This document shows, piece after piece, positions 21,925-39,464 of a stretch of DNA of 64,000 nt; positions within the stretch are counted from its first letter, which is position 1; every line of letters begins with the position of its first letter. Location of the stretch: positions 1-64,000 of IMG/VR virus record IMGVR_UViG_3300032069_000005. One strand, written 5' to 3'. The DNA is from a virus. A program made the translations under genes and the position numbers. The notes beneath the pieces were generated by a model. The model worked only from the letters and a program-made list of their open reading frames with translations. It searched no databases and was not told the DNA's origin.

Positions 21925-23841
21925 ATGGGCGTTAATATTGACCAACTTTTTTCTTATCTAAAAGAAAAAGTTCCTAATTTTGTTAAGACAACTAAACGAG
22001 GTAAGATTCTTTTTACTTGCCCGCAGGAGAATAAACATCATTTTAAATCTTCTTCTCCTACAATGACAGTTATCCCAGGCAGCGAAAAATTTTATTGTCT
22101 GTCTTGTGCCTGGAAAGGAAATACTTATGATTTAGTTCGATTAGTAGAAAATAAACAAATGACCGATGAAGAAATTATAAATTTTCTCACCAATAATACT
22201 AAAATAGATATTTATCCTGAATTAGATGAATATAAGAAATATGGGTGGTATTTATTTGCTATTGCTAAAAATAGTAAAAAACCCCTGAAAGATGAACATT
22301 GGAGAGAAAAAGAATATTGTTCCAATGAAAAAGCAAGGTGGATACAATGGCTGGAAAATGGATGCAATATAGCCATTAATTGTGAATTTAGTAATACAAT
22401 GTTAGTTGATTTTGATGATAAAGAAGTTTCTCCAGCATTACAGCCGCTAAGAAATGAATTGAAGAAAATGCTGGAAGATAGCAAAACATTAATGCAAAAT
22501 ACCCCCAGGGGAGGAAAACATTATGTTTTTGTATTTGACTCTGAACTTTGTTTTAAACAACAAGTAGATTTGGGCGAAGGATTAAAAATAGATACAAGAA
22601 CACATAAGGGATATTTCCTTCTTGCTCCTTCTAAAGTATATGATAAATCCTATAATTGGATTAATCTTGGTGCGGAAATTAAAACAGTTCCGGCAGAATT
22701 GAAATCTAAACTATTGGAAATAATCAAGGTAGATTCAGGTAGAAAATTAGAAACCCCCCCAGAAATGTCTCAAGAAATGAAAGAAATAATAGATAATCCC
22801 ATTGAGCTAAAAGGCAATGATTTATCCGGTTGTAGGAATAACACCTTTATTCAAACTGGCGGAGCACTCCTAAAAATGGGTATTCCCCCAGATAAAATAA
22901 AAGTTATATTACATTATCTCAATAAAAATTGGTTAGCAACACCAAGAGCAGCACACGAAATAGAAGCAATGATGGGAAGTTTGGAAGGATATAAAGAAAC
23001 TGAAGAACAGACCCAGGAAAATTCTATATATGAATGTTGTAAATTACTTAGTTCTGACATATCCGCAAAAGATATTATGGAGCACGTTTTTCCTGGAGAA
23101 AGAAATAAAAGAGCTATCGTTGATAAATATTTAGCAAAATTTCACAAAGAAGGAAAATTATCAAGAAGAGGCAGAGGAAAATATGATTGTAAACAGGTAG
23201 TAGAATGGATTAATGAAGAACAAGAGCAATCTAAGGAAATAAATTATAAAATTCCTTATTTTGATGATGTGGCGTATTTTAGGAATGGAGATATTATTTT
23301 GATTGGTGCACCAACCGGACACGGAAAGACCACAATAGCAATTAATTTTATTAAACAAATGAAAGAACAAGGAATTAGACCCTATTATTTATCATTAGAG
23401 GCGGGGTCTCGCCACGAAAAAACTGCCAATGCTCTGGGATTAACCCAAGCCGATTATTATATTCCAAAAGAAACCGTAGTTAATCCGCTTGCAATAGAAA
23501 TAGAGCCAAATTCATTTACTATTGTTGACTGGCTTTATACAGGAGACGATTTTTCTCAGACCCAGGCGGTCTTCAAACATCTTAATGATGAAATGGTTAG
23601 AAAGGGGGGAATATTAATAGCTTTTACGCAACTCAAAGAATCATACGAATATTTTGCTATAAATCTTGTGAAATCGTTTCCTCGTTTCTCTGCTCGATAT
23701 ATTTATGACGATGAAACGGGAATTATCGGTCATTTTCAAGTTGATAAGATTACAGACCCACGTGGGCACTATCAGAATTATATAATTCCTTGTGAATTTA
23801 ATTTTTCTACAAAAGAAATTTTAAAGAAAAATAATATATAA
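21925..23841 (+). CDS. primase-polymerase (AEP) / helicase fusion
   Basis: N-terminal Zn finger (CP..H...CLSC), DFD, TPRGGKHY, PriCT-like GCRNNT, Walker A GAPTGHGKTT. Confidence 0.8.
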   Translation: MGVNIDQLFSYLKEKVPNFVKTTKRGKILFTCPQENKHHFKSSSPTMTVIPGSEKFYCLSCAWKGNTYDLVRLVENKQMTDEEIINFLTNNTKIDIYPELDEYKKYGWYLFAIAKNSKKPLKDEHWREKEYCSNEKARWIQWLENGCNIAINCEFSNTMLVDFDDKEVSPALQPLRNELKKMLEDSKTLMQNTPRGGKHYVFVFDSELCFKQQVDLGEGLKIDTRTHKGYFLLAPSKVYDKSYNWINLGAEIKTVPAELKSKLLEIIKVDSGRKLETPPEMSQEMKEIIDNPIELKGNDLSGCRNNTFIQTGGALLKMGIPPDKIKVILHYLNKNWLATPRAAHEIEAMMGSLEGYKETEEQTQENSIYECCKLLSSDISAKDIMEHVFPGERNKRAIVDKYLAKFHKEGKLSRRGRGKYDCKQVVEWINEEQEQSKEINYKIPYFDDVAYFRNGDIILIGAPTGHGKTTIAINFIKQMKEQGIRPYYLSLEAGSRHEKTANALGLTQADYYIPKETVVNPLAIEIEPNSFTIVDWLYTGDDFSQTQAVFKHLNDEMVRKGGILIAFTQLKESYEYFAINLVKSFPRFSARYIYDDETGIIGHFQVDKITDPRGHYQNYIIPCEFNFSTKEILKKNNI

Positions 23842-23974
23842 TGAAAAGAAAAATATTTATATCTGTTCGTAATTTTATACTTAAAATAAAATATCCTAAT
23901 CGAGATATTATTTGGAAAAGCAGAAAATGGAATCGAAAATATACTGATTATGTTGATTTATCTGGATAAAGATA

Positions 23975-24307
23975 ATGGATAATAAAAAAAAGGGAATCCA
24001 GTTAGAATTAATGGCAGCGAGTAAACTTCAAGAAATCTTCCAAGAAACTCCGCCAATTCGTCCCTCAAAAGCATCCTCTGGCGGGTCGCATAATACTGAA
24101 CTCGCCGATATTCAATCTCAGAATATATTTGTTGAGTGTAAGAACGATGGCAATTGGTTTAGAAGAAAGATTTGGGTGAAATTGCTTAATTCACTTCCAT
24201 TCGGAACTACCAAACTGCCTATGTATATAATCAATGACCCGATTGAAGGTGTTTTAGTTATGTTATCTTTTAATGATTTGTGTAGATTATTGAAGGAGAA
24301 AAGATGA
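23975..24307 (+). CDS. PD-(D/E)XK Holliday junction resolvase-like nuclease
   Basis: KG..LE, SSGG...ADI...FVECK. Confidence 0.65.
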   Translation: MDNKKKGIQLELMAASKLQEIFQETPPIRPSKASSGGSHNTELADIQSQNIFVECKNDGNWFRRKIWVKLLNSLPFGTTKLPMYIINDPIEGVLVMLSFNDLCRLLKEKR

Positions 24308-24464
24308 AAAAAATTACTCAAAAATCACTTAAAAAAAATTTAATTAAAATAATAAATCAAAGCAAAATTGAAGAAGTGATTTATGAACCAAGATATTATG
24401 AAGGATATGAATTACAAAAAACACTTATCGGTAGCACTATTACTATAAGAACAAGGCTATTAAA

Positions 24465-24851
24465 ATGACTAATTTTTTTAATAATATAAAATATTTTATT
24501 CAAAGAGGTAAACGAGGTTACGCTGATTGCGACCTATGGGATTTTGATGTTTATCTTGCAAAAACATTAACAAATGCGTTAAAAGATTTTAAAAAAATAA
24601 ATCAAGGAATTGCCCCAAATATCTACAGGAAATATATTAATAGAAAAGATTTAACACAGAAACAAAAAGACGAATTAGCAAAAAAAGAATGGAATACAAT
24701 ATTAGATATAATGATTAGAGGATTTAGTATTGTTCCTAAATTATTTGAAGGAAAAGTATTAAACAATAAAATATTAAAAGAAGGTTATATGTATGAATTA
24801 GGAATAGCTTTTGATTTTCTTAAAAAATATTATTTTGATTTATGGGATTAG
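24465..24851 (+). CDS. conserved hypothetical phage protein
   Basis: RGYADCDLWDFD...EW..IL..MI.GF...YFDLWD pattern. Confidence 0.55.
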   Translation: MTNFFNNIKYFIQRGKRGYADCDLWDFDVYLAKTLTNALKDFKKINQGIAPNIYRKYINRKDLTQKQKDELAKKEWNTILDIMIRGFSIVPKLFEGKVLNNKILKEGYMYELGIAFDFLKKYYFDLWD

Positions 24852-25149
24852 GAGATAATATGATTAAGATTTTTTGTTTTGACCCAGGTAAAAAGAAGAC
24901 CATATTGGCGGGATTTTATAATAAAGAACTTAAAACTTTTTTTAAAAAAGTTAAATCATCTCATTGGATGCGAATAGAAAAATCCTATGGAATACAGGAC
25001 ATTGTATTACAACAATTAAATAATTTAGGCTGTAAAAGCATTTGCATAGAAACTAAAACGTCGATAATACAATCTAATTTAGAAGATTGGCTAAAACAGC
25101 CAACAAAAAATTATGGGAATGGTAATCAAAGATTTTTAGGAGGTAAATA

Positions 25150-26193
25150 ATGGGTAGAGGCAGACCGAAAGGAAGCAAAAATAAAAAAATAACAACTCCC
25201 AAAACAGTTACAGAACATATTCAGGAGCAATCACCAAAAGTCAAGGAAATGATTAAAGAAGAAAAAGAGAAATTATCTAAAAAAAATGAGATTAACTCCG
25301 CACTCAGAAACTCGGTAAATGAACTTACAAAAAAATTTGGGCACGAAATCATTCACTTTGCTTCTGAAGAGCCGGAAAGAGAGAGAATTCCCACTGGAAT
25401 ACCTGAATTAGACAAGATGATTACTGGATTCCCTTCTGGTGCATTTTCAGTAATTTGGGGAAATAAAGGAAGCACAAAATCAACCACAGTATTGAATTTG
25501 ATTGCTCAAGCACAGAAACTTGGAAAACAATGCCTTTATTTAGATTTAGAAACCTCCTTTGATAATAAATGGGCGGATAAATGCGGAGTAGATAGAAATA
25601 AATTATTAATTGGTCATTTTGACAATGCTGAGCAAGCATTAGATACTGCAATAAAAATGAGCAAAGAGAAAGTTATAGATATAATTATATTAGACAGCGT
25701 CCAATCTCTTTCTCCCGAAGGAGAACAAGAAACTAAGAAAGGCGAAACCAAAAGCACTGGCGACGACACTGTGGCTTTATTGGCGAGGAGATTAAGTCAA
25801 TTTTTTAGAATGGATGCAGCAGGAAATTATAGAGGTAATATAACATTTATTTTAATCGGGCAAAGTAGGATGGATTTAAGCGGATATATTAAATTGGAAA
25901 AATTAAGTGGAGGAAAAGCAATCGCACATTGGGCTACTTTAATTATAAAGGCATATCGGTCAACTAAGGCAGATGCACCAAGATTTAAATTTGAAATCAA
26001 AGGTAAGAAAAAAGAAATCCCAATTGGATTTGAGATTTGTTATCGTTTAGAAAAAAAGAAGATTAGTGGAACTGCTCCTGAAGAAACAGAAGTAAGAGCA
26101 AATTTTTATAATGAATTTGGTTTTGTAGAACCTACAGAAAAACAGATAAAAGAATTATATTCGGATTGGATTTCTTTTGAAGAAAATTCTTGA
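25150..26193 (+). CDS. recA: RecA/UvsX-like recombinase with N-terminal AT-hook
   Basis: IPTGIPELD, variant Walker A GNKGSTKST, YLDLE, IILDSV, ARRLSQ, GQSR, SGGKAIAH. Confidence 0.85.
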   Translation: MGRGRPKGSKNKKITTPKTVTEHIQEQSPKVKEMIKEEKEKLSKKNEINSALRNSVNELTKKFGHEIIHFASEEPERERIPTGIPELDKMITGFPSGAFSVIWGNKGSTKSTTVLNLIAQAQKLGKQCLYLDLETSFDNKWADKCGVDRNKLLIGHFDNAEQALDTAIKMSKEKVIDIIILDSVQSLSPEGEQETKKGETKSTGDDTVALLARRLSQFFRMDAAGNYRGNITFILIGQSRMDLSGYIKLEKLSGGKAIAHWATLIIKAYRSTKADAPRFKFEIKGKKKEIPIGFEICYRLEKKKISGTAPEETEVRANFYNEFGFVEPTEKQIKELYSDWISFEENS

Positions 26194-26742
26194 TGAAAAC
26201 TAAATATAAATATATTCAATTTGATTTGGTAGAACAAGATGAAACAAAGAAGACTCAAGCATATACCGTAAGAAATATAAGTCTTCAGATAATATTAGGT
26301 TATATAAAATGGTATGGTGCTTGGAGACAATATTGTTTCTTTCCAATGATAGGAACAATCTATAGCGAAGGATGTTTAAAAGATGTTGCAGATTTTATAA
26401 AACAATTAATGGAAGATAGGAAGAAGGGGTAATAAATGTTTAAAGATATTATATATCAGATTTATTCGGATATAGAAATAAGAATTTATGAATTAGCAGA
26501 CAAAAAAATACTTATTTTTATTATAGCTGCTTGGTTATTTAATTTACAAGATAAATTAATATTTAAATGGCTAAGATTGCAGTGTTGGTTATTTGGATGT
26601 GAAGAAAGGGGCGGATATGGGGGATTTAATCTTCCTTGTGATGCTTATTGCTTTTATTGTAATAGATGCGGAGCAACTTATAGTAATTATGAAGGAAACA
26701 CCAATTATCATTTATTAAAAGGGATTTTTAAAAGAAAATATA

Positions 26743-28983
26743 ATGCTTAATCTTCCAATCCAAAATATATCCTCAATTGGTCGTGAAATAATTCTCTTTA
26801 ATCGACAACAAAGCGGAGAGCTTACAATAATGAGAGATTTATTGTTCAGTCCCTATTATTATGTTCCTTCTCCTACTGGAATATTTAGAGGATACTTTGG
26901 CGGAAAATATGATAAAGTTACTTGTAAAAATCCCCGGGAAATAAAAGATAAACGAAATGTAAAAACAGATGGGGAAAGTGATGTTCCATATGTTCGTCGT
27001 TATCTACTTGATAAAGTAAATATAATTAAATCTCCTACGAGATGGATTATGTTTGATATTGAGACTCTTAGTAAAATTGTTCCTAATCCATTGGTTGCCC
27101 CAGACCCAATTACTTCAATAACCGCATATGATAATTATGAAAAAAAGTATATTCAATTTTGGTGCGAAAATTATCCATCTGAATATGAACTTATAGATGC
27201 GTTTATCAATTATATTAAGGAAAGGAAGCCAGATTTACTCCTGGCGTATAATATAAATGGATTTGATATGCCTTATTTGGTTACTCGTTTTTCTGACTTC
27301 GGAGAAAAGGTTAGCCCCATAGGACAAATTAAAAAAAGAAATGGATACCCAGAAGGAATCAGTATAGTCGACTATTATGAACTCATTAAAAAAGTATATA
27401 AATATAAGAGGCATACTTTAGATTTTATTTATTCTGATGAATTTAAAGTTCCCCAGAATTTTATAAAATATAGATTTAATGAGATTAGCCCAATCATTAA
27501 AGAAAAGAATCTGGAAGATGTAAAAAAAATGGTCGCCTTAGAAAATAAATTGCATCTCATTGATTATTTTGATGAACAAAGGAGAATTGCAAAAGTTCTT
27601 TGGGAAGATTTATGTCATTTTAGTGTATCTATCGATGGATTGATTTTGCAAACTGCGAAATCTAAAGGCGTAGTCTTACCGAGTAAACCAGACGAAGAAG
27701 AAAAACTTCGTCGAATAGAGGAAGATGAAATCGAAGGCGGATATGTATTTGCCCAACCAGGAAAATATGATGACGCTTCTTTACTAGATATTTCTGGGAC
27801 ATACCCGAATCTAATTACTACATTTAATCTTGACCCTGTAAATAAGAAGAAAATCCCCAATTCGCAGACAGTAACTATCAGAAAAATCCACATAGAACAG
27901 AATCCCAACGCCATTGTGCCAACAGTTGCCAATAGATTAATCGCTTCTCGTAAACAAATCCAAAAAGAACTCGAAGGAAAAACAGGCGAAGAATATGATT
28001 TATTAAAGAAAAAAGATGATGCACATAAATCGCTTAATAATGTGGTCTACGGGATTTTGCTTTTTAAGAATTCTCGTATATATGATAAAGACATCGCCGA
28101 TTGCATTACCTATTTAGCGAGGTTCTTAATTCGATATACCAAATTTGCTTTAAGAAAATTGGGATATTCAGTCATTTCTTCAGACACCGATTCTATTTTT
28201 GTTCATTCCAGAGATTATGAGAAAATAGAAAAATTATGCAATGAAACATTAATTCCTAACTGGCTTAGACACTTTGGCAAAACAGAAGGAACTCTGAGAT
28301 TTAAATATGAAGGATATTTTGAGAATGTTGTTTTTGAAGCACCAAAACATTACAGAGGCAATTTTGTTACTGCTAAGGGCGAACATAAAATGATAAATAA
28401 AGGCATCGAAATTGTTCGCAAAGATTCTTCTAAATTTCAAGAAGAATTTTTAGAGGAATTATATAATAGAATTTTAAAAAATGAAAGTGAGCAAACCATC
28501 TCTAATTGGATATTAGAACAAATAAAAGAATTACCCAATAAACCATTGAAAAATATTGCATTTCCTTTTCAAATAGTCCAAAAAATTTATAATAGTATTC
28601 CTATATCTATTCGAGCACTTCAATATACTGACGAAATAATTCCCAATTTTAGTCAAGATTATCATAATGAATTATATTATATTTATGTTAAACCATTTGG
28701 AACAGCAGAAAGACATTCCAAAAGTATGCGAAAGAATAAAGATACTGGAAAAAAGGAATTAAAAGAATCACATACTATAATAAATAAGAACGTCCTCGCC
28801 TTTGACGAAAATACTGACCACATAAAAGAAGTAGATTATTCAGAAATGATTAGACGCAATATTTTAGATAAGGCGGAAAAGCTCTTTGATGTTTTGGGAT
28901 GGAATAAAGAATTGATTGGGATAAAAAAGAAAATTTCTAAAAAAGATGCAATTGCCGAACTCAAAAAAAGAGGATTATTATAA
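26743..28983 (+). CDS. polB: family B DNA polymerase with 3'-5' exonuclease
   Basis: FDIET, YN..GFD, DISGTYP, K..NNVVYG, SDTDS, KHY, KGIEIVRKD. Confidence 0.92.
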   Translation: MLNLPIQNISSIGREIILFNRQQSGELTIMRDLLFSPYYYVPSPTGIFRGYFGGKYDKVTCKNPREIKDKRNVKTDGESDVPYVRRYLLDKVNIIKSPTRWIMFDIETLSKIVPNPLVAPDPITSITAYDNYEKKYIQFWCENYPSEYELIDAFINYIKERKPDLLLAYNINGFDMPYLVTRFSDFGEKVSPIGQIKKRNGYPEGISIVDYYELIKKVYKYKRHTLDFIYSDEFKVPQNFIKYRFNEISPIIKEKNLEDVKKMVALENKLHLIDYFDEQRRIAKVLWEDLCHFSVSIDGLILQTAKSKGVVLPSKPDEEEKLRRIEEDEIEGGYVFAQPGKYDDASLLDISGTYPNLITTFNLDPVNKKKIPNSQTVTIRKIHIEQNPNAIVPTVANRLIASRKQIQKELEGKTGEEYDLLKKKDDAHKSLNNVVYGILLFKNSRIYDKDIADCITYLARFLIRYTKFALRKLGYSVISSDTDSIFVHSRDYEKIEKLCNETLIPNWLRHFGKTEGTLRFKYEGYFENVVFEAPKHYRGNFVTAKGEHKMINKGIEIVRKDSSKFQEEFLEELYNRILKNESEQTISNWILEQIKELPNKPLKNIAFPFQIVQKIYNSIPISIRALQYTDEIIPNFSQDYHNELYYIYVKPFGTAERHSKSMRKNKDTGKKELKESHTIINKNVLAFDENTDHIKEVDYSEMIRRNILDKAEKLFDVLGWNKELIGIKKKISKKDAIAELKKRGLL

Positions 28984-29126
28984 TATGGATTTATCTAAAT
29001 TATCTAATGAAGAATTAATGAAAATAGCGAAAATATCTCCTAAATTTGCGGGGGAAGTATCGAAAAAGATACTCCTTGCTTCCAGCGAGGAAGGTGGGGT
29101 GCAAGTCCCTAACCCCGCTCCAAATA
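28954..29126 (+). repeat. 173-bp direct repeat, copy 1 (identical to 30007-30179)
   Basis: covers the polB 3' end, SD, Mom N-terminus and tRNA-like element; offset 1053 bp. Confidence 0.95.
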
Positions 29127-29917
29127 AAGAATTAATAATTAAAAAAAAAGAAGAATTGATGCACTCTGATTTTGATTCTTCAAATTTTATGATAGAATTA
29201 ATTGAACCAAAAATGACATATGAGTGGATGATGTATAAACATTATGCACATAAAATACCTCCGGTTATTAAATATTGTTACGGTTTATTTAAAAATAAAC
29301 AACTCGTGGGGGTTTGTGTTTATGGAATATTGGCAAATAAAGAATATAATAATGGAAAATGTTTGTTTAAAAATTATCGAGTTGATGTTTTAGAATTAAA
29401 AAGATTAGTTGTAGATGATGATTTGCCAAAAAATACATTATCTTATTTTGTTTCAAAAACATTAAAAATGCTTCCACAACCAACGTGCGTTGTTAGTTAT
29501 GCAGATAGTAATCAAAATCATCACGGATATATTTATCAGGCTACCAATTGGTTATATACAGGTATGGGAAGAGGGAAATTAGCAATAATAGACAAATCAA
29601 CGGGAGAGGAAATTCACGAGAAAACGATATATGACAGGTATGGGACAAATAATATAGAAATTTTAAAAACTAAATTTGATTTTGATACAAAAATTTTAAA
29701 AGGAAAATATCGTTATTTAAAATTTATTGGAAATCATAAACAAAAAAAAGAAATGTTACACTCATTAAAATGGAAACTTTTTCCATATCCAAAAGGCGAT
29801 AATATCAATTATGATGCTTCTTATAAAATTAAAAATTTAAATATAAATAAAAAAGGAATAATTCAGGAAAAGAGAGAGGAAGATAGACAGACAGAAAAAC
29901 AGGAGGAAGAGAGATGA
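28985..29917 (+). CDS. mom: Mom-like GNAT adenine-modification enzyme, copy 1
   Basis: KHYAH, ELKRL, PKNTLS, VSYADSNQNHHGYIYQATNWLYTG, K.RY, PYPK; GAGGA SD before ATG 28985. Confidence 0.8.
   Translation: MDLSKLSNEELMKIAKISPKFAGEVSKKILLASSEEGGVQVPNPAPNKELIIKKKEELMHSDFDSSNFMIELIEPKMTYEWMMYKHYAHKIPPVIKYCYGLFKNKQLVGVCVYGILANKEYNNGKCLFKNYRVDVLELKRLVVDDDLPKNTLSYFVSKTLKMLPQPTCVVSYADSNQNHHGYIYQATNWLYTGMGRGKLAIIDKSTGEEIHEKTIYDRYGTNNIEILKTKFDFDTKILKGKYRYLKFIGNHKQKKEMLHSLKWKLFPYPKGDNINYDASYKIKNLNINKKGIIQEKREEDRQTEKQEEER
29048..29122 (+). tRNA. non-canonical tRNA-Gly(UCC)-like element embedded in frame in mom copy 1
   Basis: GCGGGGG/ACCCCGC-T-CCA acceptor, GTAT/ATAC D-stem, CCTTG-CTTCCAG-CGAGG anticodon arm, TGGGG-TGCAAGT-CCCTA T arm; 75 nt. 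Confidence 0.8.
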
Positions 29918-29919
29918 TA
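29857..29919 (+). repeat. 63-bp purine-rich direct repeat, copy 1 (one mismatch to 30874-30936)
   Basis: encodes the IIQEKREEDRQTEKQEEER* tail plus SD and ATG of the next gene. Confidence 0.92.
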
Positions 29920-30036
29920 TTGAAATTTCAACAACATAATGGTTGGGTATATGTTTCTGATTTATATAAAGTAGAAACCAGACAAATGTCAAAAAAAGAA
30001 GCACTCGCCGAACTCAAAAAAAGAGGATTATTATAA
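29914..30036 (+). CDS. 40-aa chimeric junction ORF
   Basis: MILKFQQHNG... resembles the start of 30931 (MIVKIIQENG); ends SKKEALAELKKRGLL like the PolB C-terminus SKKDAIAELKKRGLL. Confidence 0.55.
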   Translation: MILKFQQHNGWVYVSDLYKVETRQMSKKEALAELKKRGLL

Positions 30037-30179
30037 TATGGATTTATCTAAATTATCTAATGAAGAATTAATGAAAATAGCGAAAATATCTCCTAAATTT
30101 GCGGGGGAAGTATCGAAAAAGATACTCCTTGCTTCCAGCGAGGAAGGTGGGGTGCAAGTCCCTAACCCCGCTCCAAATA
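30007..30179 (+). repeat. 173-bp direct repeat, copy 2
   Basis: identical to 28954-29126. Confidence 0.95.
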
Positions 30180-30934
30180 TAAATAAAATCATAAAACAAA
30201 AATATGATAAAATACAAGACAATAAATCACAATCGAAAGAGATAAAAAATTTTAATTTAAAAGATTTAAATATGAAAGAATTGGAATTTCAAATAACTAA
30301 AGAATTTATTGTTAAGAATCATTACAGTCATACAATTTCTTCATCTATAAAAGCAAGTATTGGATTTTTTTATAATAATAAATTAGTTACTGCTATTGTT
30401 TATGGTCATCCAATTGGAATTAATGTTGGTTCTTGGTTGCAAGTTCCTGAAGGAAGTTATGCCGAATTAATTAGAGTTTTTAGTGTTGATGAGTTACCAA
30501 AAAATACGGAAAGTTATTGTTTGGCAAAGTCATTTGAATTTTTGAAGAAAAATAAACCAGAATTAAAATATTTAATTAGTTATGCAGACCCCACTCAAGG
30601 GCACGTAGGTTATATTTATCAAGCAACTAATTGGTATTATGTTGGTAAACAGATAGGAATGGATAGAATTTTTAAAATTGATGGCAAACAAGTTCATAGA
30701 AGAACCGCCAATGCTGCTTATGGAACATCTTCAGTTAAAAAATTATCAGAATTATTAGGCAAAAGATTTGAAGTATCAATAACATATCCAAAACACATTT
30801 ATTTAATGTGTTTGGGTTCTCGTAAAGAAAAAAAAGAATGGTATAATAAATTCAAACAATTACCATATCCTAAAATAATTCAAGAAAAGAGAGAGGAAGA
30901 TAGACAGACAGAAAAACAGGAGGAAGAGAGATGA
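30038..30934 (+). CDS. mom: Mom-like GNAT adenine-modification enzyme, copy 2
   Basis: KNHYSH, ELIRV, PKNTES, ISYADPTQGHVGYIYQATNWYYVG, KHIY, PYPK. Confidence 0.8.
   Translation: MDLSKLSNEELMKIAKISPKFAGEVSKKILLASSEEGGVQVPNPAPNINKIIKQKYDKIQDNKSQSKEIKNFNLKDLNMKELEFQITKEFIVKNHYSHTISSSIKASIGFFYNNKLVTAIVYGHPIGINVGSWLQVPEGSYAELIRVFSVDELPKNTESYCLAKSFEFLKKNKPELKYLISYADPTQGHVGYIYQATNWYYVGKQIGMDRIFKIDGKQVHRRTANAAYGTSSVKKLSELLGKRFEVSITYPKHIYLMCLGSRKEKKEWYNKFKQLPYPKIIQEKREEDRQTEKQEEER
30101..30175 (+). tRNA. non-canonical tRNA-Gly(UCC)-like element embedded in frame in mom copy 2
   Basis: identical 75-nt cloverleaf to 29048-29122. Confidence 0.8.
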
Positions 30935-30936
30935 TA
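30874..30936 (+). repeat. 63-bp direct repeat, copy 2
   Basis: matches 29857-29919. Confidence 0.92.
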
Positions 30937-31194
30937 GTAAAAATTATTCAAGAAAATGGAGCATTGTTTTATGATGGATTTGAAAAAATCAGATATGAAT
31001 ATAAAACCAGTGAAGAAATGGAAACCATCGATACAAACGCTATGTGGATAAACAGTAAGTTGCCTCTGAGCGGAATTTTGATTATAGGTCGTAGAAAACC
31101 GATAATTGGAACTGACCCAGAATTTACTATTAGAACAAATGGGGAGACATATCTTCTTAATGATGAAGGTAAGACGATAGAAAGGATTAGATAA
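30931..31194 (+). CDS. conserved small phage protein
   Basis: ends YLLNDEGKTIERI, a common phage motif. Confidence 0.6.
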   Translation: MIVKIIQENGALFYDGFEKIRYEYKTSEEMETIDTNAMWINSKLPLSGILIIGRRKPIIGTDPEFTIRTNGETYLLNDEGKTIERIR

Positions 31195-31198
31195 AACA

Positions 31199-31777
31199 AT
31201 GATTTCTCTTCTTCTCTCTAAACTTGAAAAGAATCTTGGATTGAAACTTCGTAAGAATGTAATGTGCCTCGGAGTTGATACTGCTTCAACTACTGGACTG
31301 GCTCTTATTTCTACTTTTGGGGGAAAAGCAATAATCGATTATTCTATTTTTAAATTACCCTCAATTCCCCGAAAAATAGCTGACCAAATGTTAAAGGCGG
31401 AAAAATACGAGCAAGCAATGGACAGTGCTCTTAATTTAATTAGAGATTATAAAAAAGAAATGAAAATTAAATCCCCATCTATTTTGATATTGGAGCAATC
31501 TTTTCTTTTAATGAGTCCAGAAACTTTTGGTTATCTTAGAAGTCTTGGGGGTGTTTTCTATTCTGAACTTTATGATTCGTTTGATGAGATAAAATTTTAT
31601 CTTCCTGGAGTTGCAAGAAAATTAGTTGGATTTCACTCAAATTTAAAAAGAGGAACTCCAACAGACCAAAAGAAAAAAGAAATAGTAGATTGGATTTCTA
31701 ATGTAGTAGGAGAAAAGATTAAAGACCATAATATTGCGGATTCCATCCTATTATCACTTGCGGGGATAAGATTATGA
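31199..31777 (+). CDS. ruvC: RuvC-like Holliday junction resolvase
   Basis: LGVDTASTTGLA, ILEQ, DHNIADS RNase H-fold acidic residues. Confidence 0.75.
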   Translation: MISLLLSKLEKNLGLKLRKNVMCLGVDTASTTGLALISTFGGKAIIDYSIFKLPSIPRKIADQMLKAEKYEQAMDSALNLIRDYKKEMKIKSPSILILEQSFLLMSPETFGYLRSLGGVFYSELYDSFDEIKFYLPGVARKLVGFHSNLKRGTPTDQKKKEIVDWISNVVGEKIKDHNIADSILLSLAGIRL

Positions 31778-31840
31778 CAAATTGGAAAGAAGATTTAGAA
31801 AAAAAAGCAATTGAACTCAACATTAAAAAGGAGGAGAAAA

Positions 31841-31939
31841 ATGGTAGTTCTACTCAAGGAAATAGTCGCCTTCGTGATAGGAGTAGTAGCGGGCGGGGGC
31901 GGGATGCTGATTTATCAAACATTCGCAAAGAAAAGTTAA
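31841..31939 (+). CDS. 32-aa single-pass membrane peptide
   Basis: AGGAGGAG SD; MVVLLKEIVAFVIGVVAGGGGMLIYQTFAKKS; different frame from track ORF 31774. Confidence 0.5.
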   Translation: MVVLLKEIVAFVIGVVAGGGGMLIYQTFAKKS

Positions 31940-31962
31940 ATAATGTTAGAGGAGGTGAATTA

Positions 31963-32202
31963 ATGATTTCTAAAGAAGGTGCACTTCGGGACATTGATGG
32001 TATCGTTAGTAAAGGGGAATATATTGATAGGGAAACAAAAAAGACAATAACATTAAATAGTGATTTGGAAAAGTTAGGGGCAATCGTTAAAGTTTTGATT
32101 GTGTTTTTGAATTCAATGAGGTCAAATCAGTTGCTTCCTGAAACAGAAAAGGCTCGCATTTACACCGAAAGAAAAAACAGGAAAGAAACAAATAAACAAT
32201 AA
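31963..32202 (+). CDS. hypothetical protein (likely true start within ORF 31774-32202)
   Basis: GGAGGTG SD before MISKEGAL. Confidence 0.5.
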   Translation: MISKEGALRDIDGIVSKGEYIDRETKKTITLNSDLEKLGAIVKVLIVFLNSMRSNQLLPETEKARIYTERKNRKETNKQ

Positions 32203-32208
32203 CTTAAC

Positions 32209-32236
32209 GAGAGTGATGGTTAATAGCCTCACTCTC
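32209..32236 (+). terminator. intergenic stem-loop
   Basis: GAGAGTGA-TGGTTAATAGCC-TCACTCTC with perfect 8-bp outer stem; no U-tract. Confidence 0.4.
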
Positions 32237-32602
32237 CCAAAAAGGAGTTAAAATGAAGAATTATATTCATATTATAATTCCCAAAAATAAAGAGGTCATT
32301 AAAGCACAAAGAGCAACAATTTCTATTGGAAGAAAGAAATATTATGTTCAGGTTGAAGATATTAAGATTGAATATAAAAATTCGTTTTGTGAAATTGGAA
32401 ATTCCGATATTATCACACAACCCATAGAGCATATTAAAATAAATTTTAAATTATTAAAAAATGAATGATTTAATTTGGTGTCCTAAATTTAAAATAAATG
32501 TTAATCCCGAAATGGAAGAAAATTGTTTAGGGTGTATTTTTTGGGATAAAGAAAAAAAGATATGTTTTTTTGATGAATGGCTTCCAGGATTAAAAAAAGA
32601 AA

Positions 32603-32965
32603 ATGAATAATTTAAAAGATATTTTTGGTGGACTATTAATTTTAACATCTATAGGCGATGCCCTAAAATATACTATCCAGGCAAATAAGATTAGAAAAAC
32701 ACAAACTGCGAAATCAATGTCAAGGAGATTCATTAATCTTGCTTTGCTAAATGATTTTGTGAAATTGGGATATGGATTTGTCATTAAAGATTTATTTATC
32801 ATTACTTCTTCTATGTTGGCATTGGTTTGCATGACGGATTTATTTTGGCAGATTTATTGGTGGTATCCGTATCGCAAAAGAGGGTTAATCAACTTTCGCC
32901 GACCATCTATTTTTATTTATTTAATAAATAGTTTAACCCCGAATAACAGAAGAAAGAGGCTTTAG
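32603..32965 (+). CDS. PQ-loop/SemiSWEET-like small membrane protein
   Basis: Q..KI.KT.TAKSMS, three TM helices, YG..I.D. Confidence 0.55.
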   Translation: MNNLKDIFGGLLILTSIGDALKYTIQANKIRKTQTAKSMSRRFINLALLNDFVKLGYGFVIKDLFIITSSMLALVCMTDLFWQIYWWYPYRKRGLINFRRPSIFIYLINSLTPNNRRKRL

Positions 32966-34000
32966 ATGAATTTATTATTCGCTTCCGATTTTCATATCGA
33001 AGAGCAGAGTTTCGAGGAATTAGAATTGGTTTTTAATGAAATCCTTGAAATCAAAGAAGCTAATAAAATAGATAAAATTATCATTCCTGGGGATTCATTT
33101 GACCGCATTTCGCCCACCTCAAAAGAATTAGATTTTCTTTCTACTTTTATAAAAAAATTAAATTGCCAAATAATTCTAATTGCGGCAAACTCACACGAAA
33201 GCACGACCCAAGAAGATAGTGTCATAAACCACATAGGAATTTTGCGGGATGATATTTTAGTTTGTAAAGAATGGAAGGATGAACACCGTCTTTTCGCTGG
33301 GCACTTTATTGTTAAACAATCTACCAAAAATAAAGGCGGAACAATCAACCAATCAGAATTAAAGGATTATCGGAATGTGGTTTTGGGGCACGGGCATATT
33401 TTCGAGTTGGTAAAACCAAATTTATGCCAACTTGGGAGCATTAGATTTATTAGTTTCGGGGAAGACCCCGCTATTAATAAGAAGGTAGCAATCTGCTATA
33501 ACTATGGTGAAAAAGACCAGGGATGGCAATTTATTGACCTAAAAACGCCCTATCCATTGATAGATATAGAGTTATGTAAAATGAACATTTCCAAAGACCT
33601 TAAAATCGTTCAAAATGACCCCCCAGAGCTTCGCTCCGGTAAGCAAGGGAAAGCTCCGAAACCCATAAACAAAGCCAAAATCGCCCCTTCAAACCCTATG
33701 AATCGCTCTTCATTTGGGGCAGTAGGCGAACTTTGTTCCTTTCTGGATAAAACCAGCCCTAAGAGCAAGGTTAGGGTAGTTTTTAAGGATTATTCAAGTT
33801 GGGTAAATTTCTTACCTTTCTACCAGAGATACAAGGATAAATTCTATGTGATGAGGGATAAGAAGGACTTTTTAGTTACCATAGATAATACTCCAAAAGA
33901 TAATAAAAAAGAAACAATGAGAGAATCATTAATTAAGTGGATGACTACAAATAAGATTGAAGATAAGATACAGAAGATTTTATTAGAGGAAATTAAATGA
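32966..34000 (+). CDS. sbcD: SbcD/Mre11-like nuclease
   Basis: SDFH, GDSFD, SHE, LGHGH, GS...SFGE. Confidence 0.8.
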   Translation: MNLLFASDFHIEEQSFEELELVFNEILEIKEANKIDKIIIPGDSFDRISPTSKELDFLSTFIKKLNCQIILIAANSHESTTQEDSVINHIGILRDDILVCKEWKDEHRLFAGHFIVKQSTKNKGGTINQSELKDYRNVVLGHGHIFELVKPNLCQLGSIRFISFGEDPAINKKVAICYNYGEKDQGWQFIDLKTPYPLIDIELCKMNISKDLKIVQNDPPELRSGKQGKAPKPINKAKIAPSNPMNRSSFGAVGELCSFLDKTSPKSKVRVVFKDYSSWVNFLPFYQRYKDKFYVMRDKKDFLVTIDNTPKDNKKETMRESLIKWMTTNKIEDKIQKILLEEIK

Positions 34001-34156
34001 ACTTAAATCCTTTTCTTATTATAAGTATTTTATTAAATTTTTGTGCATCTGGTTGGTATTTTTATAAATCAGGGATAGTATTAGGTTTATTATTTTTAGG
34101 TTATGCTTTCTGTAGTTTTATTAGTTTATTTTTAAAGGTACAATAAAGGAGACAAT

Positions 34157-34945
34157 ATGGAAATAAAAGAAATGTTAAATAAAATATTTTTAGAAACTAA
34201 AAATGGGTTTGAGTATGTAAAAGAAATTCCCGACAAGAGTATTGATATGATACTTTGCGATTTACCTTATGGCACGACTGCCTGTAAGTGGGATGCCGTT
34301 ATTCCTTTTGAGCCACTCTGGGAACAGTATAAACGAATAATAAAAGACAATGGGGCAATAGTTTTAACAGCTTCACAACCTTTTACCAGTGCTTTGGTGA
34401 TGAGTAATATTAAGATGTTTAAGTATGAGTGGATATGGGAGAAAAACACAGGAGCAGGATTTATCCACGCAAAAAATAGACCACTAAAAAGACACGAAAA
34501 TGTATTAGTTTTTAGCAAAGGAAGTATGGGTCATATAACTTTATTGGGTGAGAAAAGGATGATATACAACCCCCAAAACTTAATAAAACAAAAAACTATC
34601 AGAAAAAATGGTGTAAGTGGAACAACTATTGGCGATAGACCATCACATCACGATAATTTAATTTCAGAATTTATGAATTATCCAACAACAATTCTTAACT
34701 ATAAAAATGATAAGGGTCTCCACCCAACTCAAAAACCAGTAGCCCTATTTGAGTATCTTATTAAAACCTACACCAACGAAGGAGATATTGTTCTTGATAA
34801 TTGTATAGGTAGCGGAACAACTGCTGTAGCGTGTAAAAGATTAAATAGAAATTTTATAGGTATGGAGATTTATCAAAACTACATAGATATTAGTTATAAA
34901 AGATTATCTGAAACAAAACAAGGAGAAGGATTATGTTTGAAATAA
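34157..34945 (+). CDS. beta-class N6-adenine/N4-cytosine DNA methyltransferase
   Basis: DLPY motif IV, HPTQKP, VLDNCIGSGTT motif I. Confidence 0.9.
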   Translation: MEIKEMLNKIFLETKNGFEYVKEIPDKSIDMILCDLPYGTTACKWDAVIPFEPLWEQYKRIIKDNGAIVLTASQPFTSALVMSNIKMFKYEWIWEKNTGAGFIHAKNRPLKRHENVLVFSKGSMGHITLLGEKRMIYNPQNLIKQKTIRKNGVSGTTIGDRPSHHDNLISEFMNYPTTILNYKNDKGLHPTQKPVALFEYLIKTYTNEGDIVLDNCIGSGTTAVACKRLNRNFIGMEIYQNYIDISYKRLSETKQGEGLCLK

Positions 34946-35874
34946 TAGAATATAAAAGTCCAGGGCATCCAGATACTTTAACAGATTTGGTGGTTGAGGA
35001 GTGTGCTACTTTTTTGGATAAGTATTATCTTTCTATTTATAATAAAATTCTGCATTATAATGTTGATAAAGCAGTTTTTCTTGCTGGAGATGCCAGAATT
35101 GATTTTAAAGATTGGAAAATAATAAAGCAACCTTGTTTTATTTTGGCAGGACAAGTTAGTAAAATAACAAAAGATTTAAAATGTGGATTAACTGATATAA
35201 TAGAAAAAACAATAAAAAAATACTTGCCTAATCTTAAACAATTCAAAATAGAAATTAGATGTAATAATGTTGTTGCTAATCTTTCTAACATAGCAGAATC
35301 AAAAGAAATACTTGCTAATGATACTTCATTTGGAGTAGGCTATTATCCTTATTCTAAATCAGAACAAAAAGTTTTTGCTATTAAAAAAGAATTGGATGAA
35401 ATGATTGCTTTACAACAAATACCCATTGGCGAACTTTATAAAATAATGTATACCCCTAAAACTATAAGTATTTCTGCTCCGCTTTATGTTCAACGAGTTC
35501 ATAATAGAAAAGAATACGCCAAATATAAGAAACAAATAGAAAAGAAAGTATCTAAGTATGGAAAAATTATTTTTAATCCTGATTTTGAAAATGGATTTCC
35601 TTATTTAACAATTACAGGAAGTAGTATTGAATGTGGAGACGATGGACAAGTGGGAAGAGGAAATAGATACAATAATTTAATTACTCCCTGCCGACCAATG
35701 ACCATAGAAGCATATCATGGAAAAAATAATAAAAATCACGTTGGTAAATTATATAGTAAAATGGCTTTTGAAAGAGCAAAAGAAATCTATGAAAAAACTG
35801 GAAAATATACAGAAGTCATTTTAGTTAGTAAAATAGGCAAAGCGATAGCCGATTATGAAGAATATATAAAATGA
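34933..35874 (+). CDS. metK: archaeal-type S-adenosylmethionine synthetase
   Basis: GHPDTL, LHYNVDK, ANDTSFGVGY, YLTITGSSIECGDDGQVGRGNR, GKN..NHVGKLY. Confidence 0.85.
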   Translation: MFEIIEYKSPGHPDTLTDLVVEECATFLDKYYLSIYNKILHYNVDKAVFLAGDARIDFKDWKIIKQPCFILAGQVSKITKDLKCGLTDIIEKTIKKYLPNLKQFKIEIRCNNVVANLSNIAESKEILANDTSFGVGYYPYSKSEQKVFAIKKELDEMIALQQIPIGELYKIMYTPKTISISAPLYVQRVHNRKEYAKYKKQIEKKVSKYGKIIFNPDFENGFPYLTITGSSIECGDDGQVGRGNRYNNLITPCRPMTIEAYHGKNNKNHVGKLYSKMAFERAKEIYEKTGKYTEVILVSKIGKAIADYEEYIK

Positions 35875-37958
35875 AACTCACCAAACTCAAATTAACTAAT
35901 ATTGGACTTTTCAAAGAAGGAACTTTAATTCCTCAACAAATTAATCTTATTAAAGGAATTAATTGCGATAATCCAAAAAATAGTTCCAATGGATGTGGGA
36001 AATCTACTCTTTTTAAAATCGCTTTATTATTTGGATTATTTGGAGAAACTTGCGGAAGAAAACTTGAACGAATAATTCATTCCGGTGCGAAAACTGCGGA
36101 AGTAGAATTGGAAATAACTCACGGCAGCAACATCATTCGCATTATTAGAAAAATCCCAACCAAATTACAGGTCTTTGTTAATGGCATAGATAGGGAATTT
36201 AATTCTTCTACAATCGCACAGAATTATCTTAATGAGATTTTTGGAGATTTTACTTTCTTTAAGAAGTATTGTTTAGTTGATACTAAATCCATTAACTTAT
36301 TAGATTCCTTAGATGATAGTAGGTCGATTGTTTCTTTTAAAAAGGAACTAATGGGTTTCATTGATACCGAATTCGCTCCGCACAGGGAATCATTATTAGG
36401 CAAAAAGAATGACCGAGAACTCTATTCAGTCGATAAGCGACTGTATAAATTTCATCTTTCCAAAAAGAGATTAGAGATACTCGAAAACGGGCTTGAAAGA
36501 ATTAAAGAAGAACTCAATAATGTTAATCGAGATAGAGAAATACAGCAGCAATCAATCAATCAATTGAGTGGGGAGATTACTTCTTCTGAATCTAAAATAG
36601 AATTTTTATATAATAAGGAAAGTGAAAATTTAAATAATATAGAACAGTGCAATGGGTTTGTTGAGGACAACAAAACGATAATAGAAAAATTAAATAATCT
36701 TCCGAAGCAAGAAAAAATAGCTGTAATTGATTATGATAAAGATTTATCTATAGCAGAAAAAAAATCGGAATCATTAAATCAAGAATTAAAAGAAAACGAA
36801 AAGAAGATAGACTTAGTTAAAAAGGATATTGAAAAAATTAATTTCCAGATTCATTCAGCCGAAAATGATTTAAGCAAGTATAATAATGATAAAGTAAAGT
36901 TAAATAAAGAAATCATTGGATTGGATAATGTTAAAATAGGAACGAAATGTGATAAGTGCGGTTCTCTTGTTTCAATAGAATATCGGGACAGTTATCGAAA
37001 AGATAAAACTAATGAAATTGAGGATATAATAAAAAAAGAAATTCTATTAAAGAATTCTTTAATTGAATTGCAGAATTCGCTTACTACAAAAAATAATGAA
37101 TTAAAATCATTAATTAATCGGAAATCGCTTGTGAGTGATAATATTGAAGTCATTAAAAAAGATATTAAAGAATTAAATAACAAAAAATTCGCACAAGCAG
37201 AGGCAGTAAAAAAACAGGAAAACTCGGCTACCCAGATTACAACTGATATTGAAAAACATCAAAATTCAATAAAAATATCCGAAGAACAGATAAAAAAATA
37301 TCTTAACCACAATATCGAAATAAAGAAAGAAATCTCTGAACTAAAAATTACTATTGAATCTAACAAAACTAAATTATCCGAAGAAAGTAATTGTATAGAT
37401 TATTACAATGATTTGTATAATGGAATACAACATAAAGAAACCAGGACTAAAGATTGTATAATGAAACTCAAAGAGGCATTTAAATTTTCGGATTATAAAT
37501 ACACTAAAGAAGATATTCGGCTCTATGCCGATTCAATTAAGACCCTGGATGCCTTTTCCGGCTACTATATACAGGAATGGATGAATAATTTGTCATTTAT
37601 TATTAATGACCTTTTAAAAGATTTAAATCTATCAATTGAATTAACCGATGAAAAAGAATTCCTAAAAATAAAAGACGGAGAAGAAGAACTTACTTATGCG
37701 GATTTAAGTGATGGGCAAAGGATTTTCTTTTCTGGAATATTTAAATTGGCGATTTTATTGAAAAAAGGCGAATCTGATGGAATAATTATAATGGATGATG
37801 GATTGGGATGTTTAGATAAAATTAATTTTAAAAATTTAATAGATATTTGCCAGAATCTCCCATTTCAGCTTTTTGCGGTTTTTCAGGATTTGCCAATAAT
37901 CGAAAATGTCAATGAATTTATAATAGAAAGAAAAAATGGTGAAAGCAAAATCATATAA
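35871..37958 (+). CDS. sbcC: SbcC/Rad50-like SMC ATPase
   Basis: NGCGKST Walker A, long coiled coil with CDKC zinc hook, LSDGQ signature, IMDD Walker B. Confidence 0.88.
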   Translation: MKLTKLKLTNIGLFKEGTLIPQQINLIKGINCDNPKNSSNGCGKSTLFKIALLFGLFGETCGRKLERIIHSGAKTAEVELEITHGSNIIRIIRKIPTKLQVFVNGIDREFNSSTIAQNYLNEIFGDFTFFKKYCLVDTKSINLLDSLDDSRSIVSFKKELMGFIDTEFAPHRESLLGKKNDRELYSVDKRLYKFHLSKKRLEILENGLERIKEELNNVNRDREIQQQSINQLSGEITSSESKIEFLYNKESENLNNIEQCNGFVEDNKTIIEKLNNLPKQEKIAVIDYDKDLSIAEKKSESLNQELKENEKKIDLVKKDIEKINFQIHSAENDLSKYNNDKVKLNKEIIGLDNVKIGTKCDKCGSLVSIEYRDSYRKDKTNEIEDIIKKEILLKNSLIELQNSLTTKNNELKSLINRKSLVSDNIEVIKKDIKELNNKKFAQAEAVKKQENSATQITTDIEKHQNSIKISEEQIKKYLNHNIEIKKEISELKITIESNKTKLSEESNCIDYYNDLYNGIQHKETRTKDCIMKLKEAFKFSDYKYTKEDIRLYADSIKTLDAFSGYYIQEWMNNLSFIINDLLKDLNLSIELTDEKEFLKIKDGEEELTYADLSDGQRIFFSGIFKLAILLKKGESDGIIIMDDGLGCLDKINFKNLIDICQNLPFQLFAVFQDLPIIENVNEFIIERKNGESKII

Positions 37959-39463: not shown

Positions 39464-39464
39464 A

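Follow-up and report, generated by a model that had tools for sequence, protein, structure and literature searches.

A 64,000-nucleotide stretch of viral DNA, hereafter the window (positions 1 to 64,000 of IMG/VR virus record IMGVR_UViG_3300032069_000005), carries two open reading frames (ORFs) for proteins of the Mom family, Mom A and Mom B, next to a gene for a family B DNA polymerase (polB). Each of these frames contains, as codons of the protein, a 75-nucleotide (nt) element resembling a tRNA-Gly with the anticodon UCC (Table 1). The same order is found before each Mom domain: a conserved leader peptide (MDLSKLSNEELMKIAK...), the 25 tRNA codons, and a variable linker. The two copies of the element are identical, with 0 mismatches over 75 nt (0 matches expected, 100 shuffles), and belong to a repeated 173-nt module consisting of the polB tail, a ribosome-binding site, the leader peptide codons, and the tRNA element. 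The identity between the two modules stops 4 nt past the CCA, and the Mom A and Mom B domains share only ~45% identity. The full record, 86,231 nt in length, belongs to a tailed virus whose genome it is estimated to cover to 86%; it encodes a family B polymerase, a primase-polymerase, RecA, RuvB, and tail proteins, and contains exactly two Mom genes and two elements. A first-pass annotation of the sequence had proposed that the first element is a non-proteinogenic tRNA, which keeps its glycine away from translation and reserves it for a GNAT-type transferase.

The sequence features listed in support of this proposal (the T loop, the D loop, A8, the G7:A66 mismatch, and the U49-A65 and G50-U64 pairs) are all present on the plus strand at 29048-29122. 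The element reads as a cloverleaf of canonical tRNA form, with stems of 7, 4, 5, and 5 base pairs (bp) and with an anticodon loop and a T loop of 7 nt each. In the seven-position acceptor stem, G7 faces A66, and positions 8-9 are A8 and A9; the D stem of 4 bp closes a D loop, CGAAAAAG, without GG (A18A19); the anticodon stem of 5 bp closes the loop CUUCCAG with the anticodon UCC; the variable region is 4 nt long; the T stem (U49-A65, G50-U64, G51-C63, G52-C62, G53-C61) closes the T loop UGCAAGU; and the 3' end is formed by the discriminator U73 and the encoded CCA. The canonical core and elbow nucleotides U8, A14, G18G19, and U54-U55-C56 are replaced here by A8, C14, A18A19, and U54-G55-C56. 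The minimum free energy fold is this cloverleaf (-33.9 kcal/mol, z = -3.37), a value equalled by 0/200 shuffles, and the G+C content of the element is 57% versus ~30% for the virus genome. It had been predicted that standard annotators would miss such an element, and they do: ARAGORN called 0 tRNAs in the whole window, and Rfam gave no match at gathering thresholds. The Rfam tRNA family RF00005 was absent even at E<=10 on a 401-nt slice and matched nothing in the entire 86,231-nt virus record; the weak Rfam matches obtained on the slice (E 1.8-10, far under gathering scores) are due to chance.

Table 1. Coordinates of the polB-mom locus in the window (aa, amino acids; CM R1, covariance model)
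Feature	Coordinates	Strand	Details
Family B DNA polymerase, directly upstream	26743..28983	+	PF00136, PF03104
173-nt module, copy 1	28954..29126	+	pairwise alignment, repeat family D1
Mom A ORF, 310 aa from conserved start MDLSKL...	28985..29917	+	Mom domain residues 68-270; PF25680 E 2.1e-38
tRNA-Gly(UCC)-like element, copy 1	29048..29122	+	75 nt, CCA encoded; in frame in Mom A; CM R1 96.5 bits
40-aa chimeric ORF between Mom genes	29914..30036	+	ORF list, repeats D1 and D2
173-nt module, copy 2	30007..30179	+	pairwise alignment
Mom B ORF, 298 aa	30038..30934	+	Mom domain residues 77-279; PF25680 E 3e-41
tRNA-Gly(UCC)-like element, copy 2	30101..30175	+	identical to copy 1, in frame in Mom B; CM R1 96.5 bits

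Homologous elements were collected from IMG/VR by tblastn and three scans (the second IMG/VR DNA-pattern scan left the T loop and D-loop positions 18 and 19 unconstrained), as well as from JGI metagenomes by a scan with alignment of the N-terminal peptide. One IMG/VR relative shares 77% identity by tblastn and 79% by BLASTP (P0002). The JGI scan gave 15 confirmed loci, 13 of them with the element. In total, about 16 contigs yielded 12 distinct elements (alignment A3), each of 75 nt with no insertions or deletions, located on viral contigs from sediment and other environmental metagenomes. Homologs seen at the protein level (P0003, P0009, P0010, P0013, P0016, P0019, P0021, P0029, and P0045) were kept outside all pair counts; for these, nucleotide 19 was deduced from the peptide (SKK, A19; SKE, G19; SKQ, C19), and SKE was read in P0019, P0045, and P0010. 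Run on the window and 17 loci, a covariance model of the family found only the copies already known.

When the 12 elements were placed on the cloverleaf, 94.8% of 252 cells fell into standard pairs, as compared to 79.1 +/- 1.6% for shuffles (reached by 0/500), and the covariation score was 0.540 versus 0.226 for shuffles. Compensatory changes on both sides occur in 13 of the 21 pairs, which comprise all five anticodon-stem pairs, four of the acceptor stem, three of the T stem, and one of the D stem. The unpaired cells are G7.A66 in all 12 elements and a single A3.C70 (L002). Since the sequences are related, significance is exaggerated by the comparison with shuffles. Safer measures are how many pair types occur and the slid controls, in which the 3' partners were moved by 1-3 columns with relatedness kept and pairing dropped to 36-54%. 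The same cloverleaf was obtained de novo by RNAalifold from the 12 homologs. In this prediction, C14-G21, invariant in 12/12, could extend the D stem to five pairs and leave a loop of 6 nt. Positions 32-38 also covary as Watson-Crick partners (C-G in nine elements, U-A in two, and A-U in one), by which the anticodon loop would narrow to 5 nt.

The set of nucleotides conserved in 12/12 elements includes A8, A9, C14, G21, G7.A66, U49-A65, and G53-C61, together with U33-U34-C35-C36-A37 (the UCC anticodon), G1-C72, C2-G71, CCA, and G10-Y25. Pair 3-70 is G3-C70 in the window and in 7/12 overall, A-U in four, and A.C in one; position 45 is G45 in 9/12 and A45 in the window, L016, and L011. D-loop positions 18-19 are AA in nine elements, AC in one, and GG in two, and T-loop positions 54-56 are UGC in nine, CGC in one, and UUC in two, so that G55 is found in 10/12. 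The members with GG are the members with UUC (L016 and L019); most members have lost the two sides of the D-loop/T-loop contacts jointly. ARAGORN called tRNA-Gly(tcc) for L016 and L019 only, out of 12 loci scanned, and Rfam gave no tRNA match at E<=1 on six homologous loci. Because these two members keep GG and UUC and are called by ARAGORN, the family descends from a real tRNA-Gly(UCC).

The identity elements of tRNA-Gly are G1-C72, C2-G71, C35, and C36, joined by a discriminator that is U73 in Bacteria but A73 in the other two domains, Archaea and Eukarya, and its consensus includes the (G10-Y25):G45 triple, according to Giege and Eriani 2023 (PMC9976931); U73 plus G71 are also recognized by the GNAT toxin TacT (PMC9976931). 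The proposed combination of retained synthetase identity and lost elbow was borne out across the homologs, with the glycine set kept and the D-loop/T-loop elbow lost in 10/12. In the ten elbow-less members alone, 99.5% of cells pair and covariation is seen in 12 of 20 pairs. As the helices still covary among these members, the RNA stayed under selection after elbow loss; the deviations recur in homologs with intact helices, as opposed to the random, non-recurrent decay of a simple pseudo-tRNA. The ten deviant members may reflect one shared ancestral loss. Given this possibility, the recurrence stands for maintenance and not for repeated convergence within the family.

The constraint on the element acts at the level of RNA. 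Variable columns make up 11/25, 13/25, and 16/25 of the first, second, and third codon positions, and 27/42 of paired versus 13/33 of unpaired positions. The peptide over the stems changes radically (for example, ILLA, TCGT, TRLD, and IRPV), the loops are fixed, and third codon positions are kept nonetheless at C36 (12/12), U73 (11/12), and A76 (12/12). The cloverleaf is thus under purifying selection as RNA, independently of the encoded peptide.

At the same time, the element lies within a translated region. No in-frame ATG is present from the element to the Mom HY motif in 11/14 copies, and in 7/14 copies no ATG, GTG, or TTG is present between the two. Since downstream start codons are mostly absent, Mom translation must run through the element, and translation through it appears obligatory. 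An open frame across the element would on its own say little about translation, as neither frame 0 nor frame 1 is interrupted in any of the 12 elements. The leader peptide is conserved among homologs. In L005 (1074 aa; 2952-6173, minus strand of the locus), P0010 (over 488 aa), and P0082 (1439 aa; PolB exonuclease, intein, and Mom domains), polB, element, and Mom form one ORF, and L019 (1-230) is probably a fourth fusion of this kind. In the unfused forms, the leader MDLSKL... may take the place of this covalent attachment to the polymerase. The Mom domain of P0082 is followed by the tail that normally ends polB (..EELKKRGVIK), as if Mom and element had been inserted before the last residues of the polymerase.

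An exhaustive HMMER profile search with the leader-plus-element peptide against 1.84 billion representatives returned 13 proteins at E<=1e-3, of which 12 have the signature and one is a spurious repeat protein (P0084). The Mom domain is present in 9/9 signature proteins that are long enough, the other three being fragments of 45-85 aa. Among the 77 Mom homologs at E<=1e-10, 20 have the signature and 57 are without the element, and P0022 combines the same leader and a Mom domain without it; the element is therefore not needed for the protein. Of the 301 cultured-phage records with a Mom homolog in INPHARED, query cover >=80% was reached in none, and among the 25 matches listed the match starts at query residue 71 or later, past the N-terminal extension. 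A pattern free of the T loop gave two matches in 185,579 species genomes, both due to chance and with no cloverleaf, and thus no cellular or prophage copy. RF00005 detected no ordinary tRNA in 4/5 related records, including a complete genome of 101.6 kb. The virus has no glycyl-tRNA synthetase of its own (0 matches for both PF00587 and PF02091). In these searches, the association of the element with Mom is exclusive.

Two side observations were made on other loci. An ordinary-looking tRNA occurs elsewhere in one relative, at L033 1501-1579 (record G004, the genome of L018/L026; RF00005 47.9 bits; tRNA-Tyr(gta) by ARAGORN); it has a canonical GG D loop, a UUCGAAU T loop, and no encoded CCA, whereas the Mom-nested element always encodes CCA. 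In L020 (275-) and L021 (255-), the same leader MDLSKLSNEELLKIAKIN... and the upstream ..KKRG..* junction precede a different protein without the element, with a PAPS-reductase-like motif. Several enzymes encoded behind polB seem to have this leader in common as an N-terminal module.

The enclosing ORFs encode Mom-family proteins of the GNAT fold, and the transferase partner postulated in the first-pass annotation would be the very protein in which the element is nested. Mu Mom has been shown to take glycine from Gly-tRNA-Gly (Silva et al., Nat Commun 2026, PMC13219725; preprint bioRxiv 10.1101/2023.03.24.534169). Both ORFs match PF25680 with 132.5 and 141.8 bits (cut-off 27.1) over profile positions 2-202 of 202, and both align over the whole domain to the Mu Mom structure 8bv8 (Mom A, E 5.4e-14; Mom B, E 1.3e-17). 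Six of the seven key residues of Mu Mom (H58, Y59, R111, S124, D149, and Y159; numbering as chain number +9, anchored on the H58-Y59 motif of the Delta-10 construct) are kept in Mom A and Mom B. As described in PMC13219725, Mu Mom has a GNAT fold, moves glycine to the N6 of adenine in double-stranded DNA, and recognizes the terminal riboadenosine and 3' end of the tRNA; all three E. coli isoacceptors serve, and Gly-tRNA-Ala does not. The window Moms resemble Mu Mom in domain and key residues, and their co-substrate would be Gly-tRNA-Gly. They differ from it in an N-terminal extension of 60-75 residues, the middle 25 codons of which are the tRNA, in R151, which is not conserved, and in that some of their relatives are fused to polB. 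Moreover, Mu supplies no tRNA and uses the three host isoacceptors (PMC13219725), whereas the window Moms come with the element.

Weak binding to elongation factor Tu (EF-Tu) had been proposed on the basis of the T stem. We calculated T-stem affinities with the averaged Table 2 values of Schrader and Uhlenbeck 2011 (PMC3239215; -10.1 kcal/mol scale), by bacterial rules that may not be those of the host. The window came out at -8.9 kcal/mol, L011 and L018 at -9.2, and the remaining nine elements at -10.3. The corresponding values given by Rietmeyer et al. (PMC7826273) are a mean of -10.8 kcal/mol for bacterial tRNA-Gly and -9.6 to -9.7 for the non-proteinogenic (NP) staphylococcal tRNAs NP1-3. 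The window T stem is thus calculated to be weaker than those of the NP tRNAs, on a bacterial EF-Tu scale that may not suit the host. According to the same report, glycine itself adds little to EF-Tu binding, which is offset by tight tRNA bodies, and proteogenic Gly-tRNA is sequestered by EF-Tu away from FmhB (PMC7826273). Only the window has G50-U64 (1/12); at 50-64, nine of the other elements have A-U and two have G-C, and at 51-63 ten elements have G-C and two A-U. With G50-U64 in a single element and nine stems at -10.3 kcal/mol, the calculation does not make EF-Tu avoidance via the T stem a family trait; it gives a weak T stem for the window and not for the family as a whole.

Fem enzymes have a GNAT-like fold. 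The partner of the staphylococcal NP tRNAs and Mom, whose GNAT fold is reported in PMC13219725, are both aminoacyl-tRNA-dependent transferases. The likeness to staphylococcal tRNA-Gly pointed out in the first-pass annotation extends to the T loop, since NP genes are reported to have TGC or TGT in place of TTC (PMC7826273), and UGC is the triplet found in the window. NP1-NP3 (FmhB/FemA/FemB; PMC7826273) also share with the element the UCC anticodon, the loss of G19, and the retained glycine identity, and they bind EF-Tu weakly, as the window element would by calculation only; six-pair anticodon stems were noted in the NP tRNA-Gly too. They differ in several respects. The NP tRNAs have s4U8, while the element has A8, C14, and G7.A66; the weak T-stem pairs are A49-U65/U50-A64/A51-U63 in the NP tRNAs and U49-A65/G50-U64 in the element; the glycine acceptor is lipid II in the former and, as proposed here, DNA adenine in the latter; and the NP genes are chromosomal, whereas the element is viral and lies in frame inside an enzyme ORF. 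The element is thus an analogue, and not a member, of the NP lineage, which PMC7826273 calls exclusive to staphylococci.

Taken together, these data lead us to a reading that we consider to have an even chance of being correct: the element, which the virus encodes and which derives from tRNA-Gly(UCC), is a glycine carrier dedicated to the Mom enzyme within whose gene it lies and poorly suited to translation. The absence of G18G19/U55, plus A8, G7.A66, and, in the window, G50-U64, leads us to expect a poor ligand of EF-Tu and the ribosome. Some polB-mom transcripts, when free of ribosomes, would fold into the cloverleaf; host RNase P together with 3' trimming would release the element, or it would at minimum be cleaved after the CCA. 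The host glycyl-tRNA synthetase (GlyRS) would charge the product via C35, C36, G1-C72, C2-G71, and U73, and Mom would then pass the glycine to adenine N6 in double-stranded DNA, as Mu Mom does. The glycylated element would form a pool of Gly-tRNA for Mom that is not sequestered by translation, and would spare translation the large glycine demand of genome-wide modification; the rationale is that post-replicative adenine modification in a burst of 86-kb genomes would need a large Gly-tRNA flux. Translating ribosomes would keep the cloverleaf unfolded, and translation and tRNA release would be alternative fates of a transcript. The idea that Gly-tRNA is reserved for a transferase and kept away from translation is thus partly supported, by the Mom context, the glycine identity, and the elbow loss, and gains no support from the T stem as a family trait. 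A more far-reaching proposal, which we put forward tentatively and which is rather more probably wrong than right, is a self-contained DNA-hypermodification cassette, where the same codons of one transcript would encode the enzyme and a private carrier orthogonal to translation. Ribosomes, unfolding the cloverleaf and yielding Mom or PolB-Mom, would compete with tRNA processing, which would free the carrier at the cost of the message, and this competition would set the ratio of enzyme to co-substrate.

A number of points weigh against a dedicated glycine carrier. Several concern its release: RNase P uses the tRNA elbow, which the element lacks, and a free CCA end requires processing that is assumed here, since the element is internal and has no terminator. 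It lies inside the ORF in 14/14 copies and never in an untranslated region or at the 3' terminus, and neither a promoter of its own nor a terminator after it could be identified in an uninformative scan of 20000-39999 (133 promoter-like sites versus 105.9 expected; 7 terminator-like sites versus 8.8 expected). Cutting out the element would sacrifice the mom message; in L005, P0010, and P0082, where polB is fused to it, polB would also lose its stop codon or be truncated. Others concern the tRNA itself. L016 has A73 (U73 in 11/12), the acceptor stem of L002 has the A3.C70 mismatch, and nine of the 12 T stems are just 0.5 kcal/mol under the tRNA-Gly mean and thus near ordinary. Even in both ARAGORN-positive members A8, C14, G21, and G15/G48 are off the canonical pattern, and the three-dimensional fold may therefore not be tRNA-like; to our knowledge, a core with A8, C14-G21, G15, and G48 is unlike that of any known tRNA. 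With regard to the enzyme, R151, essential in Mu Mom (PMC13219725), is T in Mom B and N in Mom A, and, as three host isoacceptors all work for Mu Mom, a private tRNA is not required for the chemistry. The host clues are mixed: P0007, a protein of one relative, is labelled as from a Lokiarchaeia metagenome-assembled genome at NCBI, and the window encodes bacterial-type RecA, RuvB, and 5'-3' exonuclease along with an archaeal-type S-adenosylmethionine synthetase. U73 and the encoded CCA of the element look bacterial. Finally, the run look-up for locus 28600-31000 returned two DNA sediment runs and no RNA run, and the tandem arrangement rests on assemblies of perhaps one sample.

Some of these points speak for the strongest competing explanation, in which the element is a cis-acting tRNA mimic kept uncharged in the polB-mom mRNA and bound by Mom (as feedback on its own translation), by GlyRS or another tRNA-binding protein, or else serves as an RNase P signal tuning the mom message. 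It would account for a location always internal to the ORF, with 11/14 copies having no in-frame ATG before Mom, for the lack of an identified promoter or terminator in the scan, and for at least three relatives with polB, element, and Mom in one ORF, where an intact message is needed. A copy of Mom's co-substrate would also account for the glycine identity, and the expression of Mu mom is known to be under tight control. An uncharged form, however, needs no full glycine identity set, yet C35 and C36 are kept in 12/12, as are the synonymous third positions C36, U73 (11/12), and A76 (12/12). All five anticodon-stem pairs are compensated, though an RNase P site or a site for Mom at the acceptor end needs no anticodon arm, and Mom reads the terminal riboadenosine and 3' end (PMC13219725), which is not free within an mRNA. 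We therefore regard a cis-acting mimic as unlikely, but as a serious competitor.

A precedent for tRNA mimicry in mRNA is the E. coli thrS operator; such operators copy only the anticodon arm and lie in the 5' untranslated region. The element is similar in being a tRNA-like mRNA fold that could be bound by a protein that binds that tRNA, and differs in being a whole tRNA with acceptor end and CCA inside a coding region. Other relevant cases are the aminoacylatable tRNA-like structures of plant RNA viruses and the mascRNA and mitochondrial tRNA punctuation, which are cut by RNase P from longer transcripts. These, like the element, are tRNA-shaped modules within a longer transcript, coding or non-coding, and tRNA enzymes can recognize them. 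They sit at the 3' end or between genes, whereas the element is inside a translated frame, and it is distinguished by a true cloverleaf with anticodon and encoded CCA.

Phage tRNAs are common, and an ordinary decoding tRNA-Gly(UCC) for GGA codons of an AT-rich genome, placed in the mom leader by chance and with its odd nucleotides tolerated, has also to be considered. GGA accounts for 371/717 glycine codons in 37 long ORFs, the genome GC content is ~30%, and two homologs are canonical enough for ARAGORN. Such a role is nevertheless hard to reconcile with 10/12 elements without G18G19 and U55 and 12/12 with A8, C14, and G7.A66, or with a window T stem calculated at -8.9 kcal/mol, though glycine needs a tight tRNA body. 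Further points against it are the exclusive association with Mom, the two copies in the window, each within its own Mom gene, and the lack of any further tRNA in the 86-kb record and of any in the complete 101.6-kb relative; that glycine is the sole amino acid Mom uses would be a coincidence. In our view, a decoding tRNA is improbable.

Phages often carry tRNA fragments at attachment sites, and standard tRNA finders reject the element, but a decaying pseudo-tRNA, an attachment-site remnant, or a protein-level linker without RNA function is highly improbable, being contradicted by the compensatory changes in 13/21 pairs, the 94.8% of cells that pair, the covarying helices within the ten elbow-less members, and the de novo RNAalifold cloverleaf; moreover, what an attachment site requires is a sequence identical to that of a host tRNA, not covariation, and the loops are invariant while the peptide over the stems changes radically.

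As for the surrounding locus, region 28931-31000 is a tandem in which the polB tail, Mom A, and the start of the following ORF come first, and then a piece similar to the polB tail, Mom B, and the following ORF at full length. The 40-aa ORF between the Mom genes is a chimera of both flanks, similar at its head to the ORF behind Mom B and at its tail to the C-terminus of polB (..AELKKRGLL). A further repeat at 29857-29942 recurs at 30874-30959 with 90% identity, and relatives have at the same place either a Mom A-type or a Mom B-type gene (L002 versus L001). The tandem Mom cassette looks like the product of exchange or duplication by recombination in the conserved flanks. Logan contigs of run X1 cover every part of the tandem without mismatch, including the junction 29890-30036, with depths of 22.7 for Mom A, 22.1 for Mom B, and 17.7 and 39.1 for the flanks, and the depth of the unitig for 28954-29126 is about 2.6-3.3x that of its flanks. 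Run X1 may be the window's own source sample, in which case it provides a second assembler and not second data, and a strain mixture is possible. A low-depth (3.4x) X1 contig matches 29107-29157, that is the 3' part of the element, with four differences, and its upstream letters form a canonical T loop, GUUCGAGC. Because the contig continues into these canonical letters, a relative with a canonical-type element seems to co-occur in the same sediment sample.

Three other regions of the window were noted. At 34157-35874, an N6/N4 DNA methyltransferase (PF01555, E 2e-33) is followed by the archaeal-type S-adenosylmethionine synthetase (PF01941, E 6e-69); together they form, at a distance of 3 kb from Mom A and Mom B, a second module for DNA modification that brings its cofactor supply with it. 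An intein with LAGLIDADG homing-endonuclease domains lies inside a large ORF (49119-51680), as well as in polB of P0082, and a similar interruption of polB in L001 (2-3001) was judged by eye from the ORF listing. A cytidylyltransferase-SDR fusion and a Polysacc_synt_2 dehydratase at 44823-53476 fit a glycan-modification locus.

Non-proteinogenic tRNA-Gly and the use of Gly-tRNA by Mom are already known. The new observation, not found in the literature searched, is that a virus encodes, within the Mom reading frame, a derivative of tRNA-Gly whose T loop has the same change. By term look-up, the main texts of the Mom paper (PMC13219725) and its preprint make no mention of an encoded tRNA or tRNA-like element, and the literature searches yielded no report of a tRNA inside mom or inside another phage reading frame; the supplements on >8000 mined Mom homologs may contain gene-neighbourhood data that bear on it. 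Mom was only recently shown to use charged tRNA-Gly, and these viruses suggest that the supply of this co-substrate may be limiting enough for a virus to bring its own carrier. If so, the concept of the non-proteinogenic tRNA would extend from the staphylococcal cell wall to viruses and DNA modification, with the same changes in T loop and D loop reached independently. The same nucleotides would yield a tRNA and a protein in the same frame, providing biochemists with a small natural pair of tRNA and enzyme that is shielded from translation, and a functional class of tRNA derivatives would escape standard tRNA finders. Should the more tentative cassette proposal also hold, the element would have no precedent as a tRNA gene lying in frame within a gene for a protein or as a non-proteinogenic tRNA of a virus, and it would be an example from nature of an orthogonal tRNA that evolved by removal of the D/T elbow.

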